Source: an uncultured Prevotella sp. (GTDB lineage: Bacteria; Bacteroidota; Bacteroidia; Bacteroidales; Bacteroidaceae). Taken from it: a DNA stretch of 64,000 nucleotides. Below, in pieces: positions 6,444 through 29,086 of the stretch (positions within the stretch are counted from its first letter, which is position 1; every line of letters starts with the position of its first letter). Position numbers and translations under genes: made by a program. Location of the stretch: NCBI GenBank assembly GCA_944320305.1, contig CALUGW010000003.1:45372-109371 (forward strand), in the 5' to 3' direction. The notes under the pieces are model-generated. The model made no database searches. It was given only the letters and a program-made list of their open reading frames with translations, and was not told where the DNA came from.

Positions 6444-6517
6444 TGATCCCGTTGGGATTCAAACCCAAGACCTTCAGAACCGGAATCTGACGCTCTATTC
6501 AGCTAAGCTACGGGACC
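6444..6517 (-). tRNA. tRNA-Arg (anticodon CCG)
   Basis: Reverse complement GGTCCCG TAGCTTAGCTGAATAGAGC G TCAGA TTCCGGT TCTGA AGGTC TTGGG TTTGAAT CCCAA CGGGATC A folds as a cloverleaf. No encoded CCA. A -7 box TACCTTTGCA lies at 6527-6536. Confidence 0.96.
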
Positions 6518-23419: not shown

Positions 23420-24211
23420 ATGAACAAAATCAACGAACTGTTCAAGAGCGCAGGCGACAGAAAGCTGCTCTCGCTCTATTTCTGTGCCGGGTGCCCCACT
23501 GCCGAGGGCACTGCCGACACGCTCAGGGCCATGCAGAGGCGTGGCATCGACATGGTGGAGGTGGGCATTCCGTTCAGCGACCCCATGGCCGACGGGCCGG
23601 TGATACAGGACGCCGCCACGCGCGCGCTGAGAAACGGCATGACGCTGGGCCGCATATTCGCGCAGCTCAAGGCCGTGAAAGATGAGATAACAATGCCGCT
23701 CGTGCTCATGGGCTATCTCAACCCCATACTGCAGTACGGCATTGAGCCGTTCTGCCGCAGCTGCGTGGAGTGCGGGGTGTCGGGGGCTATCATACCCGAC
23801 CTGCCGTTCAAGGACTATATGGACGTGGTGAAGCCGGTGGCCGACCGCTACGACCTGAGGGTGATAATGCTGATAACCCCCGAGACAAGCGAGGAGCGCA
23901 TACGCTTTATCGACGAGCATACAGACGGGTTCATCTACATGGTGTCGTCGGCAGCCACCACCGGGGCGCAAAAGCTCTTCGACGCGCAGAAGCTCGACTA
24001 CTTCCGCCGCATAAATGCCATGGGGCTGCACAATCCCAGAATGATTGGCTTCGGAATATCCAACCGCCAGACTTTGGAAAGCTCGCAGGCCAATGCCGCG
24101 GGGGCGATTATCGGCAGCAAATTCGTGACTCTGCTGAACGAGAGCCACAATGCCGACGAGGCGCTTGACAAACTGTTCGAGGCTCTTGGCCTACAGGACG
24201 GAGACCGCTGA
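23420..24211 (+). CDS. trpA: Tryptophan synthase alpha chain
   Basis: EVGIPFSDPMADGPVIQ, LMGYLNP and GFGI motifs. Confidence 0.95.
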   Translation: MNKINELFKSAGDRKLLSLYFCAGCPTAEGTADTLRAMQRRGIDMVEVGIPFSDPMADGPVIQDAATRALRNGMTLGRIFAQLKAVKDEITMPLVLMGYLNPILQYGIEPFCRSCVECGVSGAIIPDLPFKDYMDVVKPVADRYDLRVIMLITPETSEERIRFIDEHTDGFIYMVSSAATTGAQKLFDAQKLDYFRRINAMGLHNPRMIGFGISNRQTLESSQANAAGAIIGSKFVTLLNESHNADEALDKLFEALGLQDGDR

Positions 24212-24253
24212 CGCCGCCTCTCTTTTTACCAGGAGAGACCATTGAGGAGCCGA

Positions 24254-24590
24254 AATTTTAACACTTCAAAATCAAGCGAAATAGAAGCGCGGGGGCGGTT
24301 TCGGGCATCTGAAACCACCGGAAAAGCACAACAATTTTGCAAAACGGCCTGTTTCGCATTGCGAAACAGGCCGTTTTGCATTGCGATATAGGCCATATTG
24401 CAAGCTGATATGCCCCTTTTCAGAGCCGGATTTTGACCATTTGGGGGCTGAAAAAGGCTGTTTCGAGGGCTGATTTCATTGCACAACCGGGCCAATTAGG
24501 CCAATAAGTCCAATCAAGCCAACCAGTTACGGTTGCACACTCATATTTCGCGTATTTGCGGCGAACGGCAAACGATTTTCAAATACGCGA
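24254..24590 (+). repeat. Dispersed repeat family A, full-length 337-bp copy
   Basis: Collinear with the reverse complement of 50961-51297 and with 60576-~60780. Contains a perfect palindrome with 21-bp arms at 24338-24380. Confidence 0.8.
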
Positions 24591-24687
24591 ATTTTCAGGG
24601 CTTTATTCATGGCGGAATTTAACTGTGGTAAATGCATGTTAAAGAGCCACAGGCGTCGCCGACGCGCGAGCCATGCATCGTCTTAAT

Positions 24688-24840
24688 AAATATCCACAAG
24701 CTGCCAAGTTGTGTGCTCCATAAAGGGCGTGTCTCGCTATCAGTCATTCCGCGCGCCGACGCGGAATGACAGTTGGCGAGACACGCCTTTATAGACGCCT
24801 TTATGGAGGACACAATTTGGCAAATTGCGGATATTCATTT
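24688..24840. repeat. Dispersed repeat family C, complete hairpin (MITE/REP-like)
   Basis: Imperfect long inverted arms (…GCCAAGTTGTGTGCTCCATAAAGGGCGTGTCTCGC / GCGAGACACGCC…TTATGGAGGACACAATTTGGC…) around an inner GTCATTCCGCG/CGCGGAATGAC stem. Confidence 0.75.
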
Positions 24841-24871
24841 GCATAATCCAAAACAAATAATTATCTTTGCA
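24838..24871 (+). promoter_or_regulatory. Promoter for the methyltransferase-nuclease cassette
   Basis: TTTG at 24838-24841, 20-nt spacer, TATCTTTGCA at 24862-24871. Confidence 0.7.
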
Positions 24872-25004
24872 GACGCACCCTGCAAATACCGGCGGCCAAC
24901 AATGCCGTGGCAGGAGGCAAGAACAAAAACAACAAAACGCAAACAGAAAGAAAGGAACAGACAAGAAACAGACATATCTTTTAATCACACATATTGAATA
25001 ACTA

Positions 25005-25252
25005 AGAAGCATTAGCTATTATTTCGCGTTCGGCAAAGTCTCGCAAACTAAAAAGAACCACATGAAATAATGCTAAAAGTTGTGGCGTACACAAACTCCA
25101 CAAGCACCGATATGGTTAATGCTCACGCTGAATAGCGTGGGCAACTTATCGTGCTTGTGGGGGCTATGCGAGACGCCCGCCGAACGGATAAGAAGCCCGC
25201 GCTTCTTTTATCCGGCTGTGATTGATAGTGGATGCTCGCAAACTATCAATCT
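25005..25252 (+). ncRNA. Putative structured cis-regulatory leader RNA upstream of the methyltransferase
   Basis: Nested complementary segments CGTTCGGC/GCCGAACG, GTCTCGCA/TGCGAGAC, CTCCACAAGCAC/GTGCTTGTGGGG and GCTCACGCT/AGCGTGGGC, plus two 3' hairpins. Folded by eye only. Confidence 0.6.
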
Positions 25253-25254
25253 TC

Positions 25255-26331
25255 ATGACTTATAAAAACCTACACGCAGCAAAACGCGCAAAGCAAGACG
25301 AGTTCTACACACAGCTCTCCGACATCGAGCGCGAGCTGCAACATTACTGGCCGCACTTCTGCGGCAAGACCGTGCTCTGCAACTGCGACGACCCTTATGA
25401 GAGCAACTTCTTCAAGTATTTCGCGCTCAATTTCAATATGCTTAGACTGCGTAAACTCATTTGCACCTGCTACAATGGCTCGCCCGTGCTGGGCAACGAG
25501 TTGCTGCTGCACTTCGACGGATTCGACACTGAGCCTCAAAAACAGGCATACAAGGTGGAGATAACGGAGGTGAAAGACGAAAACGGAGACGGTGCAGTCG
25601 ACCTTTCGGACGTGCGTTTGCTACTTCACAATGATAAAAATGTCCTCGCCACCTTACAAAGCGGCGATTTTCGCTCACAAGAATGTATCGAGTTGCTGAA
25701 AGAGGCAGACATTGTCGTGACCAATCCGCCGTTCTCTCTTTTCAGAGAATACATCGGACAGTTGATAGAATATGGCAAGAAATTTTTGATTATCGGCAAC
25801 CAAAATGTAATAACATATAAAGAAATTTTTCCATTAATGATGGAAAACAAGATATGGCTTGGATATAAATCAGGCGATATGGCATTCAGAGTTCCTGATG
25901 ATTATGGGCCGAGAAGTACAAGATATTGGGTAGACGAAACAGGACAAAAGTGGAGAAGCATGGGAAACATTTGCTGGTTTACTAATCTTGACCACAACAA
26001 ACGACATGAAATAATGGATTTAATTTGCCGATATTCTCCTGATGATTATCCCAAATACGACAACTATTATGCCATCGATGTAGGAAAAACCGCAAATATA
26101 CCTTATGATTACGATGGAATAATGGGAGTTCCTATTACATTTCTCGACAAGTATAATCCAGACCAATTTGAAATTGTCGGAACGACAGAAAGTCAAGGCA
26201 AAGGTTTTTCCAATGGCCTTTGGAAAGCAGAAAGCAAAGTGGCACAACCGCTAATCAACGGACACAAAGTTTACATACGCATTTTTATTAAACTTAAGAA
26301 ACTAAAGACCCCCAAAACAGTAACCACATGA
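25255..26331 (+). CDS. Adenine-specific DNA methyltransferase, EcoRI methylase family
   Basis: KQDEFYT, VLCNCDDP, SGDFRSQECIELLKEADIVVTNPPFSLFREY and MGVPITFLDKYNPDQFEI motifs characteristic of the family. Confidence 0.88.
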   Translation: MTYKNLHAAKRAKQDEFYTQLSDIERELQHYWPHFCGKTVLCNCDDPYESNFFKYFALNFNMLRLRKLICTCYNGSPVLGNELLLHFDGFDTEPQKQAYKVEITEVKDENGDGAVDLSDVRLLLHNDKNVLATLQSGDFRSQECIELLKEADIVVTNPPFSLFREYIGQLIEYGKKFLIIGNQNVITYKEIFPLMMENKIWLGYKSGDMAFRVPDDYGPRSTRYWVDETGQKWRSMGNICWFTNLDHNKRHEIMDLICRYSPDDYPKYDNYYAIDVGKTANIPYDYDGIMGVPITFLDKYNPDQFEIVGTTESQGKGFSNGLWKAESKVAQPLINGHKVYIRIFIKLKKLKTPKTVTT

Positions 26332-27452
26332 TGACCATCAAACAGATTGAAGTTTCCGTCGGCGAAGTGTGCGACGGCTACGTTAACAACGACGAGCAGG
26401 GAGTGCGCGGCTACGGCGGCAGGCTCGACATAAGGCCACCGTACCAGCGCGAGTTCATCTACGACGAAAAGGAGCAGAGGGCCGTCATCAACACCGTGCT
26501 GAACGGTTATCCGCTCAACGTGATGTACTGGGTGAGGCGGAGCGGCGACGCAGAATGCCCCTACGAGGTGATGGACGGCCAGCAGCGCACGCTCTCGCTG
26601 TGCCAGTATGTGGCGGGGAGGTTCGCCGTTGACTACAAGAACTTCGGCAACCTGACGCCCGACGTCAGGCGGCGCATTCTGGACTACCGCCTGACAGTCT
26701 ACGTCTGCGAGGGCGAGGAGTCTGAAAAATTAGAGTGGTTCCGCACGATAAACATCGCTGGCAAGCCGCTCAACGAGCAGGAGATACGCAACGCCGTATA
26801 CGCCGGGCCGTTTGTGAGCGACGCCAAGCGCCACTTCTCTAAGACCAACTGCGCCGCCAAGCGGCTCGGCGGCGACCTCGTGGGCGGATCGCCCATACGC
26901 CAGGACCTGCTGAAGAAAGCCCTGGAGTGGATGGCAGACCACGAGACGCGCCTCGGACACCGCCAGACGGCCGTGGGTTATATGGCCGACCACCAGCACG
27001 ACCCCAACGCCAACAACCTGTGGACATACTTCCAGACGGTGATAAACTGGGCGATAACAAACTTCGACCCGAGGCGGTTCAAGAAGATAATGAAAGGCGT
27101 TGACTGGGCCACCCTATACGACCGCTACGGCGGCGAGACGCTCGACACCGCCGCACTGGGCGCCCGCATCAGCGCTCTGATGCGCGACAGCGAGATTCAG
27201 CGCCCCACGGGCATCATCCCATACGCGCTGACCGGCGACGAGCGATGGCTCGACCTGCGCGCCTTTCCCGACGACATGAAACTGGCGGCGTGGGAGCGGC
27301 AGGGGCACATTTGCCCGCTGTGCGGGCGCGAGATGGACTTTGAGTTCATGGAGGGCGACCACATAACGCCGTGGCGCGAGGGCGGACGCACCGTGGCGGA
27401 GAACTGCCAGATGCTCTGCCGCGAGTGCAACAGGCGCAAAGGAGCTAAGTGA
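26328..27452 (+). CDS. DUF262 (GmrSD-like ParB/Srx fold) plus HNH endonuclease
   Basis: RPPYQRE, DGQQR and FRTINIAGKPLNEQE DUF262 motifs; C-terminal CPLC…DHITPW…GG…NCQMLCRECN HNH domain; ATGA overlap with the MTase. Confidence 0.85.
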   Translation: MMTIKQIEVSVGEVCDGYVNNDEQGVRGYGGRLDIRPPYQREFIYDEKEQRAVINTVLNGYPLNVMYWVRRSGDAECPYEVMDGQQRTLSLCQYVAGRFAVDYKNFGNLTPDVRRRILDYRLTVYVCEGEESEKLEWFRTINIAGKPLNEQEIRNAVYAGPFVSDAKRHFSKTNCAAKRLGGDLVGGSPIRQDLLKKALEWMADHETRLGHRQTAVGYMADHQHDPNANNLWTYFQTVINWAITNFDPRRFKKIMKGVDWATLYDRYGGETLDTAALGARISALMRDSEIQRPTGIIPYALTGDERWLDLRAFPDDMKLAAWERQGHICPLCGREMDFEFMEGDHITPWREGGRTVAENCQMLCRECNRRKGAK

Positions 27453-27520: not shown

Positions 27521-27550
27521 CGGTTATAGTCCATGGCTGTAGTGGCGCCG

Positions 27551-29086
27551 TCACTTGGCGTAAGCCACGCTGCGGGTCTCGCGGATGACGGTGATCTTCA
27601 CCTGTCCGGGATAGGTCATCTCGGTCTGGATCTTGTTGGCAATGTCGCCAGAGAGCGCCTCGGCGGCCTTGTCGTCCATCTTGTCGGCCCCGACAATGAC
27701 GCGAAGCTCGCGTCCGGCCTGTATGGCGTAGGTCTTGGTGACGCCGGGATAGCTCATGGCGATGGCCTCAAGGTCGTTGAGACGCTTGATGTAAGCCTCC
27801 ACAATCTCGCGGCGGGCGCCGGGACGGGCGCCGCTGATGGCGTCGCACACCTGCACAATCGGGGCGAGCAGCGTGTTCATCTCGCACTCGTCGTGGTGGG
27901 CGGCGATGGCGTTGCAGATGTCGGGCTTCTCCTTGTACTTCTCTGCTATCTTCGCCCCGTAGAGCGCGTGGGGCAGCTCGCTCTCCTCGTCGGGCACCTT
28001 GCCGATGTCGTGCAGAAGTCCGGCGCGCTTGGCCTTCTTGGGGTTCAGGCCCAGCTCAGAGGCCATGACGGCACAGAGATTGGCCGTCTCGCGGGCGTGC
28101 TGGAGCAGGTTCTGGCCGTAGGAGCTGCGATACTTCATCTTGCCGATGATGCGGATAAGCTCCGGGTGCAGGCCGTGGATGCCCAGGTCTATGGCAGTGC
28201 GCTTGCCGGTCTCTATCACCTCGTTGTCGAGCTGCTTCTTGACCTTCTGCACAACCTCCTCGATGCGGGCCGGATGTATGCGTCCGTCGGACACGAGCTG
28301 GTGCAGAGCCAGACGGCAGACCTCGCGGCGGATGGGGTCGAACGCGCTGATGACGATGGCCTCGGGGGTGTCGTCAACGACAATCTCCACCCCGGTGGCA
28401 GCCTCGAGGGCACGGATGTTGCGGCCCTCGCGGCCGATGATGCGGCCTTTCACCTCGTCGTTGTCAATGTGGAACACGCTCACGCTGTTCTCGATGGCGG
28501 TCTCGGTGGCCACACGCTGTATGGTCTGGATGACTATCTTGCGCGCCTGGGCGTTGGCGTTGAGCTTGGCCTCGTCCATAATCTCGTTGATGTAGCTCTG
28601 GGCGTCGGTCTTGGCCTCGTCCTTCATAGCCTCCACAAGGCGCTGCTTGGCCTCCTCGGCGCTGAGGCCCGAAAGCTCCTCGAGCTTCTCGCGCTCCTGC
28701 AGCTGCATTTTCTCAAGCTCGTCGGTGCGTATCTGGAGCAGCTTCTTCTCATTGTCGATGCGCACCTGCTGGTTGTCAAGGTCGTTCTTGCGACGGCCCA
28801 GTTCCTCCTGGCGCTGGTTGAGAGAAATCTCGCGCTGCTTGAGCTTGTTCTCGCTCTGCTGTATGTGCTGGTTGCGCACCTGCACCTCTTTCTCAAGCTC
28901 GCTCTTCTTGTTAAGGAACTTCTCCTTGACCTCAAGGAGCTTTTTCTCTTTCATTACGTCGGCCTCTTTTGCGGCGGCGTCAATCATCTCATTGTATTTT
29001 CCCTTTAAAATATATCGGAAAACGAGATAACCGCCCAGCCCTCCGACAACGAGAGCGGCCACGGCGATAATTATTGTTAGAATCAT
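27551..29086 (-). CDS. rny: Ribonuclease Y
   Basis: N-terminal TM helix, coiled coil, KH domain ([13 protein letters not shown]), HD motif (GLLHDIGK), [11 protein letters not shown]. Confidence 0.97.

Follow-up and report, generated by a model that had tools for sequence, protein, structure and literature searches.

A conserved, structured leader RNA with mutually exclusive pairings upstream of restriction-modification operons in Bacteroidales

The window analysed here is a stretch of 64,000 nucleotides from an uncultured Prevotella sp. (GCA_944320305.1, contig CALUGW010000003.1, positions 45,372 to 109,371 of the forward strand), and positions are those of the window unless a locus is named. 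It contains a two-gene restriction-modification (R-M) operon on the + strand. The first gene (25255-26331) encodes an EcoRI-family N6-adenine DNA methyltransferase of 358 aa (PF13651, E 2.5e-151; PADLOC MTase_II, E 1.7e-132), and the second (26328-27452) encodes a Type II restriction endonuclease of 374 aa with GmrSD_N (DUF262) and HNH domains, which is matched over its full length by PADLOC REase_II (E 2.4e-122). The two genes overlap by 4 nt (ATGA), and the methyltransferase adjoins an endonuclease of the cognate type, by which the pair is predicted to be a Type II R-M system. Upstream, the trp operon ends at 24211 and is followed by a gap of about 1 kb; capsule-type genes lie further downstream. 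The region 25005-25257, which ends at the methyltransferase start codon, represents the conserved part, about 250 nt in length, of the operon's structured and probably cis-acting 5′ leader RNA. Taken together with its context, the element is the 5′ leader of an R-M operon inserted in the chromosome. It is referred to as the class-1 Bacteroidales R-M leader, and its RNA family was absent from the databases and literature searched. The existence of a structured RNA family is strongly supported, and its architecture looks designed for switching.

The leader is comprised of a multi-helix domain followed by two hairpins, all on the + strand. Its 5′ part carries an invariant box (GCAUUAGCUAUUAUUUCGCGUU, 25009-25030), and the domain is closed by two exact 8-bp helices, P1 (25027-25034/25179-25186, CGUUCGGC/GCCGAACG) and P2 (25038-25045/25167-25174, GUCUCGCA/UGCGAGAC). 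Inside them lie the hairpin P4a (25058-25085; stem 25058-25062/25081-25085, CCACA/UGUGG), whose loop contains a conserved GAAAUAAU at 25064-25071, and the long irregular stem P5 (25096-25162; arms 25096-25112 and 25147-25162, with one bulge and one G.U pair). P5 holds a conserved AAUGC in its 5′ arm and CUUAU on its 3′ side, and is capped by an apical hairpin (25121-25129/25134-25142, one G.U pair). A further helix, P3, is absent in the window and present only in long-form members of the family. Downstream of the domain, hairpin H2 (25186-25213; arms 25186-25196 and 25201-25213) reads GGAUAAGAAGC-CCGC-GCUUCUUUUAUCC and has a U-rich 3′ arm. The last hairpin, H3 (25220-25251), is a perfect 10-bp stem (25220-25229/25242-25251, GAUUGAUAGU/ACUAUCAAUC) with AUGCU at 25232-25236 in its loop, and it ends 3 nt before the AUG of the methyltransferase gene (25255, +). 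The same overall plan was found in 20 family members folded individually. The pairings and hairpins that had been quoted in a first-pass annotation of this DNA, made from the letters alone, are all present in the sequence; the coordinates given here were re-derived from the covariance-model alignment.

The + strand folds with −100.7 kcal/mol (RNAfold), compared with −65.7 ± 4.4 kcal/mol for 200 dinucleotide shuffles, none of which was as good (z = −8.0; 0/200); the opposite strand has z = −6.2. Homologues were collected by several routes. A methyltransferase scan of species-representative genomes yielded 80 loci from many phyla, among which the upstream element was confined to Bacteroidales-type ones; these element-bearing loci lack a Shine-Dalgarno sequence and have ...CTATCAATCT ahead of the ATG. 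A 15-nt pattern taken from the invariant box gave about 70 further full copies in metagenomes and one in a viral contig. Finally, a search with a covariance model (R1), which was built on 38 long-form sequences, returned 88 homologous leaders, one per locus, from Bacteroidales contigs of gut, rumen, and wastewater. The single copy in the 64-kb window spans 25002-25258 (122.6 bits, E 2e-25). All 88 copies have the same internal orientation, and all match the model end to end except two that are cut by contig ends.

In the alignment of these 88 sequences, which was fitted to the model and hence favours structure, 93.2% of cells form standard pairs (78.8% in shuffles), and both sides have changed in 49 of the 55 pairs. 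Covariation scores 0.366, compared with 0.136 in shuffles (0/500 as high) and 0.03-0.08 when the partners are slid by 1-3 columns. P1 (helix 1 of the model) is 98.8% paired, with one pair occurring as CG 39, UA 22, AU 14, and GC 3. P2 (helix 2) is 99.7% paired and has double-sided changes in seven of its eight pairs (e.g., AU 37, CG 37, GC 11, UA 2), whereas the corresponding values are 87-92%, with double-sided changes at every pair, for the P5 region (helices 4-7), and 97.3%, with at least one double-sided change in nine of ten pairs, for H3 (helix 10). The columns of the 5′ box are invariant or at least 90% conserved in both the 64- and the 88-sequence alignments. Covariation of P1, P2, and H3 is also present on a plain MAFFT alignment. 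MAFFT combined with RNAalifold on all 64 sequences recovered only these three helices because the interior was misaligned, a difficulty that was solved by the covariance model seeded on the long-form subfamily.

With regard to known RNA families, Rfam 15 (4227 models) at the gathering threshold matched the 64-kb window only at a tRNA gene (6444-6517, − strand). When the region 24200-25400 was searched at E ≤ 10, nothing overlapped 25000-25257, riboswitch and S-adenosylmethionine (SAM) classes included. Full-text literature searches found no description of such a leader. Plasmid records queried with the leader of the window gave no match, and neither did 50,697 phage records queried with a second family member, the L242 leader. 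The first-pass annotation had proposed a multi-stem RNA of the + strand with switch-like, mutually exclusive pairings, to be checked against shuffled controls, homologues, and Rfam, and this description is supported.

The leader is associated with R-M operons of more than one kind, namely Type II, IIS-like (two D12 enzymes and a FokI-like protein), Type III Mod/Res, and Mrr-type. In most copies an EcoRI-type methyltransferase (39-79% identity) follows the leader. Other loci differ in their first gene. In L129, two D12 enzymes, the first of them Dam-type, precede a FokI-like protein, and in L238 a Type III Mod comes before Res. In L217/L242 and L246/L169, the first gene encodes a large protein with NPPY or NPPF methyltransferase motifs and no Pfam match, after which an Mrr-type nuclease is found in L246. 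A homologue of the window endonuclease comes after the methyltransferase in 52 loci, and the upstream genes are not conserved. No gene family other than those of the methyltransferase and endonuclease occurs in more than eight of the flanks, and no mobility gene is linked. Homology between the window and its closest relative, L007, begins at 24962 and ends with the stop codon of the endonuclease at 27452, which defines a conserved cassette. Within it, alignment is at 76-77% for the N-terminal part of the methyltransferase and for the entire endonuclease gene. Nucleotide homology to L007 is lacking over the C-terminal third of the methyltransferase (25866-26322), which suggests a swapped or fast-evolving domain, possibly one for target recognition.

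The leader core itself is portable. Leaders of L129 (937-1231), L202, and L252 are near-identical, and their methyltransferases belong to different families (D12 versus EcoRI type). The homology starts only about 25 nt before the 5′ box and breaks inside the H3 loop, so that each gene cassette supplies its own H3 3′ arm and start codon, and the leader core thus behaves as a recombining module. A hunch of the first-pass annotation, that the sequence resembles leaders of mobile Bacteroidales genes, was right: R-M cassettes in Bacteroidales-type loci carry the element with them. Some leaders tolerate extra segments of 40-85 nt, many of which form hairpins of their own, between H2 and H3 or beside the 5′ strand of P3 (L077:3880-3965; L154:1051-1357, between H2 and H3; L196:2552-2885 and L199, after P2); these sites mark positions where the length of the structure is free. 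In addition, three contigs carrying the element (L004, L029, and L051) are binned to metagenome-assembled genomes of Firmicutes, Clostridia, and Alphaproteobacteria. They nevertheless carry the Bacteroidetes promoter box, and no Shine-Dalgarno sequence is present; their odd placement is probably due to mis-binning, or else to recent transfer.

The strand of the RNA can be read from its wobble pairs. In the 88-sequence alignment, G.U and U.G combinations number 281, compared with 95 for A.C and C.A, an excess that places the structure on the sense (+) strand and not on its complement. A predicted Bacteroidetes-type promoter is located upstream on the same strand (24838-24869), with a −33 element (TTTG, 24838-24841), a 20-nt spacer, and a −7 element (TATCTTTG, 24862-24869), from which transcription would start near 24876-24879. 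Of 58 copies, 52 have the −7 box consensus TAnnTTTG on the same strand no more than 160 nt upstream, compared with 5.2 expected from shuffles. The predicted leader would thus be about 376 nt long, its first 110 nt being an unconserved, A/C-rich, and unstructured spacer (24880-24990, +). In other family members this spacer is shorter, and it often contains a small 5′ hairpin after the promoter box, near the predicted start site. The promoter of the window lies outside the portion conserved with L007.

RNA data are available for one locus, L211, as assembled contigs with patchy coverage from one true metatranscriptome and three probable RNA runs. They provide weak evidence that the leader is transcribed as predicted: the contigs span the leader and end before the predicted promoter, none of them lies on the 80-250 bases beyond, and where both parts are assembled the depth of the leader is at least that of the coding region. 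One metatranscriptome contig spans only the 5′ part of a leader. The DNA runs in which the window sequence was found are chicken gut metagenomes.

The features that point to switching centre on the 5′ box, which forms a pairing hub. Its 3′ end is part of P1. Two of its segments have complements elsewhere, AUUAUUUC (25018-25025) in the P4a loop, and GCAUU..GCUAUUA (25009-25021) both in the 5′ arm plus loop of H3 and in the 5′ arm of P5. Pairing of 25009-25021 with 25223-25235 (UGAUAGU..RUGC) in the H3 arm and loop, named P0, is an alternative to H3. The distance from H3 to the AUG has a median of 3 nt across the family, and no Shine-Dalgarno sequence is seen. The two alternatives are close in energy. 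In the window, the fold with P0 forced has −100.7 kcal/mol versus −98.9 kcal/mol with H3 forced, P0 being better by 1.8 kcal/mol. Over the family, the median difference is +1.6 kcal/mol on totals near −100 kcal/mol, the two lie within 3 kcal/mol in 33 of 61 sequences, and the H3 fold is the more stable in 47 of 61. H3 is present in the minimum free energy (MFE) structure of 16 of the 20 folded sequences, and the MFE structure of the window leaves the initiation region open. The P0 pairs remain standard in between 58/62 and 85/85 sequences. At A-to-G changes in the H3 5′ arm, pairing with the box is kept as U.G; H3's own partner at this place is U in 79 and C in 3 sequences, with G.U in 2.

The second candidate pairing of the box, PK1, is a pseudoknot between AUUAUUUC and the P4a loop (25064-25071), a perfect 8-nt complement in the window that is 94% paired over the 88 sequences. 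The recorded one-sided changes in the loop are all A to G and keep a G.U pair, and double-sided changes do not occur because the box never varies. These loop variants were counted by alignment columns, as a regular-expression count had picked the wrong motif. PK1 and P0 use common box nucleotides and are therefore mutually exclusive. From conservation, wobble-only substitutions, and energetics, we infer that both can form. An earlier observation was that ATGCT recurs at 25070-25074, 25119-25123, and 25232-25236, with a complementary AGCAT at 25008-25012. All of these are present, and two have family-wide equivalents that complement GCAUU of the invariant box (AAUGC in P5, RUGC in the loop of H3); the copy at 25070 is not conserved, being common only to L007 in the displayed alignments. 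A minimal upstream open reading frame (ATG-AAA-TAA, 25062-25070) that had been pointed out in the P4a loop exists in the window. However, its AUG is absent from the other displayed sequences, and what is conserved is the GAAAUAAU loop, so a leader-peptide mechanism is rejected.

Two further helices covary and are incompatible with parts of the main domain. One of them, ALT, joins the H2 core (25195-25203, GCCCGCGCU) to the 3′ arm of the P5 apical hairpin (25134-25142); the H2 core is a copy of the 5′ arm of that hairpin and follows its changes. In the window, ALT as a duplex has −18.7 kcal/mol and is as strong as the P5 apical stem with which it competes (−17.0 kcal/mol); H2 has −14.7 kcal/mol. 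Over the family, ALT duplexes formed within the same sequence average −15.3 kcal/mol, compared with −11.2 kcal/mol for cross-sequence controls, and the pairs vary as CG 44/UA 17 and UA 51/GC 7/AU 7 under a model that was not fitted to ALT. The other helix, X (GGGC 25161-25164/GCCC 25175-25178, +), links the 3′ end of P5 to the segment between the 3′ strands of P2 and P1. It encloses the 3′ strand of P2 and is incompatible with P2 because no linker is left to cross that helix. The pairs of X, which were not used in the alignment fit, occur as GC 35, AU 34, and GU 7 and, at a second position, as GC 60 and AU 11; its register in the window was read by eye, the model alignment being imperfect there. 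In addition, the base of H2 and P1 compete for an AACGC strand, with a one-base overlap between H2 and the outer helix in the window.

H2 also raised the question of termination. Downstream of the H2 core there is a run with at least 5 U in 8 nt in 76 of 84 instances, and the role of an antiterminator would fall to ALT. The first-pass annotation was correct on the overlap of this hairpin (given as 25185-25214) with the outer helix and on its U-rich 3′ arm; a canonical terminator is not supported for its short form. In class 1, the G+C part of the H2 stem is only 2-5 bp, and a terminator scan gave no flag. As the U-run falls within the 3′ arm of a more extended hairpin, it is uncertain whether H2 acts as a terminator.

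In general terms, the leader has what is expected of riboswitch-type leaders, i.e., a covarying structured domain in the 5′ untranslated region (UTR) and, over the initiation region, pairings that exclude one another. The explanation that we modestly favour is control in cis, with the leader governing how translation of the methyltransferase begins. According to this model, transcription would begin at the upstream Bacteroidetes-type promoter, and the RNA would fold into the multi-helix domain (P1, P2, P3 in long forms, P4a, and P5) followed by H2 and H3. The A/U-rich region before the AUG is the landing site of ribosomes where Shine-Dalgarno pairing is not used. H3 would bury this site, so that translation of the methyltransferase would be off, and that of the endonuclease would be off as well by translational coupling through the 4-nt overlap. 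The earlier suggestion that the last hairpin masks the initiation region is supported. When the invariant 5′ box pairs with the 5′ arm and loop of H3 (P0), the initiation region would be freed and translation would be on. The fold of the intervening domain would decide whether the box is available, since the box also complements the P4a loop (PK1) and the P5 5′ arm, and P1 versus the H2 base, P2 versus X, and the P5 apical hairpin versus ALT would be further exclusive pairs in the domain. Candidate triggers are a metabolite, a protein, or the kinetics of co-transcriptional folding. A more ambitious form of the model, which we put forward only tentatively, is that the family constitutes a new class of sensor RNA in gut Bacteroidales, driven by an effector and spreading by recombination in the loop of the last hairpin, which would gate R-M and related cassettes for defence with at least four unrelated types of enzyme. 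Such an RNA would be a counterpart of the controller (C) protein, as a riboswitch or another effector-driven switch, and its signal would be common to all of the operons, for instance SAM or a sign of infection.

Several observations weigh against a translational switch of this kind. P0 and PK1 share the invariant strand and hence have no double-sided covariation, and a subfamily of the L006 type does not have the PK1 loop motif. The fold containing ALT, X, and H3 is a median of about 20 kcal/mol less stable than the P1/P2/P5 fold in the full-length RNA. ALT and X are thus not simple equilibrium partners, and a two-state equilibrium with ALT+X+H3 as the off state was rejected on this ground. 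They may instead represent folding intermediates, a state stabilised by an effector, or a state of truncated RNA, and would need kinetics, an effector, or truncation to matter. The geometry of class-1 H2 does not support a canonical terminator. A few copies precede genes other than R-M genes (L243, L268, and L156), namely those for a sulfatase/EptA-like membrane protein, a DUF2334/polysaccharide deacetylase protein, and a small protein followed by an RNase_T-BRCT exonuclease; these copies may be remnants of cassette loss or may reflect a wider use of the leader.

A true riboswitch would be a more specific version of the translational switch and not a contradiction of it: the P1-P5 domain and PK1 would form an aptamer for a small molecule, whose binding would hold the 5′ box in place and so allow closure of the ribosome site by H3. 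SAM is the obvious guess because the downstream operons begin with a SAM-dependent methyltransferase, and a DNA methyltransferase as first gene is their only visible common denominator. The large conserved multi-helix junction, the invariant unpaired A-rich segments, the complementarity of a loop to the 5′ tail, and an expression platform of mutually exclusive helices over the initiation region all suit an aptamer, as does, weakly, the depth of the leader in the RNA-run contigs, since a leader at least as deep as its coding region is often seen with riboswitches. However, the stretch matches no known class at E ≤ 10, SAM classes included, the regulated genes serve defence and not a metabolic pathway, which is atypical, and a few copies stand before unrelated genes, so that a riboswitch is possible but doubtful. 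An unlikely alternative is a leader that depends on a protein or purely on kinetics. In the first case, a protein of the host or of the cassette would recognise the invariant box or else the duplicated GCAUCACGC-type motif. In the second, co-transcriptional folding by way of metastable pairings (ALT, X, and 5′ box with P5 5′ arm) would time expression after the cassette has reached a new cell, in the manner of the programmed folding of hok mRNA. The invariance of a 22-nt box exceeds the usual demands of pairing, although the several pairing partners of the box can also explain it. In favour of this reading, too, the H2 core copies the apical 5′ arm of P5 and follows its changes. ALT and X covary yet lie about 20 kcal/mol above the ground state, as would be expected of transient folding intermediates. 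R-M cassettes also require ordered expression on entering a new host. On the other hand, the cassette has no conserved candidate protein beyond the methyltransferase and endonuclease, which differ in family between loci, and these two are co-transcribed with the methyltransferase first, so a timer in the leader alone would not separate them.

The remaining readings are less likely. Release of the leader, or of its 5′ two-thirds, near H2 as a small RNA acting in trans through AUGC/GCAUU motifs would make use of the conserved complementary repeats (GCAUU in the box, AAUGC in P5, RUGC in the H3 loop), the U-rich run after the H2 core (76/84), and the hairpin and U-tract of a second leader class described below; the metatranscriptome contig confined to a 5′ part and the depth of the leader relative to the coding region would agree with it. 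We consider it improbable, since each locus, the 64-kb window included, has a single copy, no Rfam family (any c4-type family included) matches the stretch, one molecule can satisfy all of the complementarities, and efficient termination is doubtful with the class-1 U-run inside the 3′ arm of a longer hairpin; RNA ends cannot be read from contig data. Quite improbable, too, is a constitutive leader that protects the mRNA and presents the start codon as a portable expression module. It would fit the open initiation region in the MFE structure of the window, the portability across gene families and promoters, and the frequent small, stabiliser-like 5′ hairpins near the predicted start site. However, a stabiliser needs no conserved occluding hairpin, as H3 is in most MFE structures (16/20) and most forced comparisons (47/61), nor two sets of covarying and mutually exclusive helices. 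A role at the level of DNA, as an invertible promoter segment (inverton) flanked by P1, a site at which cassettes are exchanged by recombination, or an Frpo-type single-strand promoter that would serve after entry by conjugation, is scarcely credible. The cassette is mobile, leaders have been recombined onto different genes, and the opposite strand folds well (z = −6.2); the P1 arms form inverted repeats about 150-200 nt apart, a spacing that occurs in Bacteroidales invertons. An inverton, however, has no need of several nested internal helices that covary, all 88 copies are in one orientation with end-to-end matches (apart from the two cut by contig ends), and the promoter motif is outside the P1 repeats, so this candidate was rejected. 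The Frpo-type promoter was rejected as well, because the G.U excess (281 versus 95) fits a sense-strand RNA and not the template strand, a normal double-strand promoter is found upstream, and the flanks (trp operon and capsule genes) are chromosomal; for all DNA-level readings, no linked mobility gene and no match in the plasmid or phage records was found.

Among known systems, the closest likeness is to riboswitch and attenuator leaders (e.g., SAM riboswitches with a platform that sequesters the ribosome-binding site). Shared features are the covarying multi-helix 5′ UTR domain, a candidate pseudoknot with the 5′ tail, exclusive helices at the initiation region, and a hairpin with a U-rich 3′ side, whereas the present leader has no similarity in Rfam and precedes unrelated families of defence enzymes instead of a metabolic pathway. 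A second parallel is the hok mRNA of hok/sok, which has an antisense partner, 3′ processing, and the tac, fbi, ucb, and dcb elements. Both are mRNAs of a selfish, addictive module in which long-range pairing between the 5′ end and the start region sets translation (here as proposed) and in which exclusive helices, some of them metastable, are each supported by covariation; coupled covariations in hok mRNA were reportedly described by Gultyaev, Franch and Gerdes in 1997. In contrast to hok, the product here is a methyltransferase/endonuclease pair and not a toxin peptide, there is no sequence relationship, and the long-range helix would open the start site, which 5′-3′ pairing closes in full-length hok. 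The first-pass annotation had compared the repeats with the antisense RNAs of P4 CI and P1 c4. Like P4 CI and P1/P7 c4, the leader has short repeats complementary to another site in the transcript, and a 5′ piece of it might in principle act on sites downstream, but this is an analogy of logic only, as the architecture is different and much larger (about 250 nt), no c4 model matches, and the genomic context is not that of a phage. The setting in phage immunity which the comparison implied was not found: the element was present in only one of 71 viral pattern matches and in none of the 50,697 phage records.

In Type II R-M systems such as PvuII, Esp1396I, EcoRI, and Eco29kI, control by C-protein circuits and antisense RNAs has been described, in which transcription factors with C-boxes or short antisense transcripts are used (PMC2997769, PMC3850674). 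The leader resembles these systems in being a dedicated, portable regulatory module in the R-M cassette, presumably for safe establishment and maintenance, and differs from the C-protein circuits in that there is no C gene and the module is a cis-acting folded leader. A C-protein-controlled R-M system was accordingly rejected for this locus, as only the methyltransferase and endonuclease families are conserved beside the leader in the cassette 24962-27452.

Four sequences provide further support for the idea of an anti-sequestor. The four closest methyltransferase homologues without a class-1 leader carry a diverged, class-2 leader upstream of the methyltransferase (L001:3650-4003, L002:1266-1619, L038:3144-3497, and L016:3650-4003), which was not detected in the search with model R1. 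The promoter type is that of class 1, the 5′ box (AAGCGUUUGCUGUUAUUCGG; also given as AAGCGTTTGCTGTTATTCGG) is related, and there is a strong hairpin followed by a U-tract. Its AGCAAUACGC segment could pair alternatively with the box or with AUAGCGU just before the AUG. The same logic of box, anti-box, and pre-AUG segment, in different letters, would be independent support for the proposed opening of the initiation region.

Known safeguards of the host against R-M systems are controller proteins, antisense RNAs, methyltransferase autoregulation, and phase variation. To our knowledge, almost nothing is known of R-M control in Bacteroidales, which are a dominant gut order and initiate translation without Shine-Dalgarno pairing. 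As an element common to operons of Type II, IIS-like, III, and Mrr type, the folded leader would add a new layer, based on RNA, to the control of immunity, and would exemplify structure-based control of initiation in this phylum. It marks R-M cassettes in metagenomes, may account for the variable restriction barriers that hinder genetics in Prevotella and Bacteroides, and could provide a compact regulatory part for the engineering of these bacteria. If a metabolite is bound, the family would make up a new class of riboswitch, and one whose regulon is unusual.

Some other features of the flanks were also recorded. A perfect 21-bp palindrome with A/T-run flanks (24338-24380), flagged as terminator-like, lies 130 nt after trpA; it causes a sub-threshold match to Thr_leader and is probably the terminator of the trp operon. 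Directly upstream of the predicted promoter is an imperfect inverted repeat of about 155 nt (24685-24839), whose nested arms measure 42 nt (86% complementary) and 31 nt (87% complementary), and which could be an insulating terminator, an element resembling miniature inverted-repeat transposable elements, or an insertion scar. Just past the R-M cassette, and outside its conserved part, an open reading frame of 491 aa (27533-29008, +) has no Pfam or PADLOC match and is nearly fully overlapped by one of 511 aa on the other strand (27551-29086, −).

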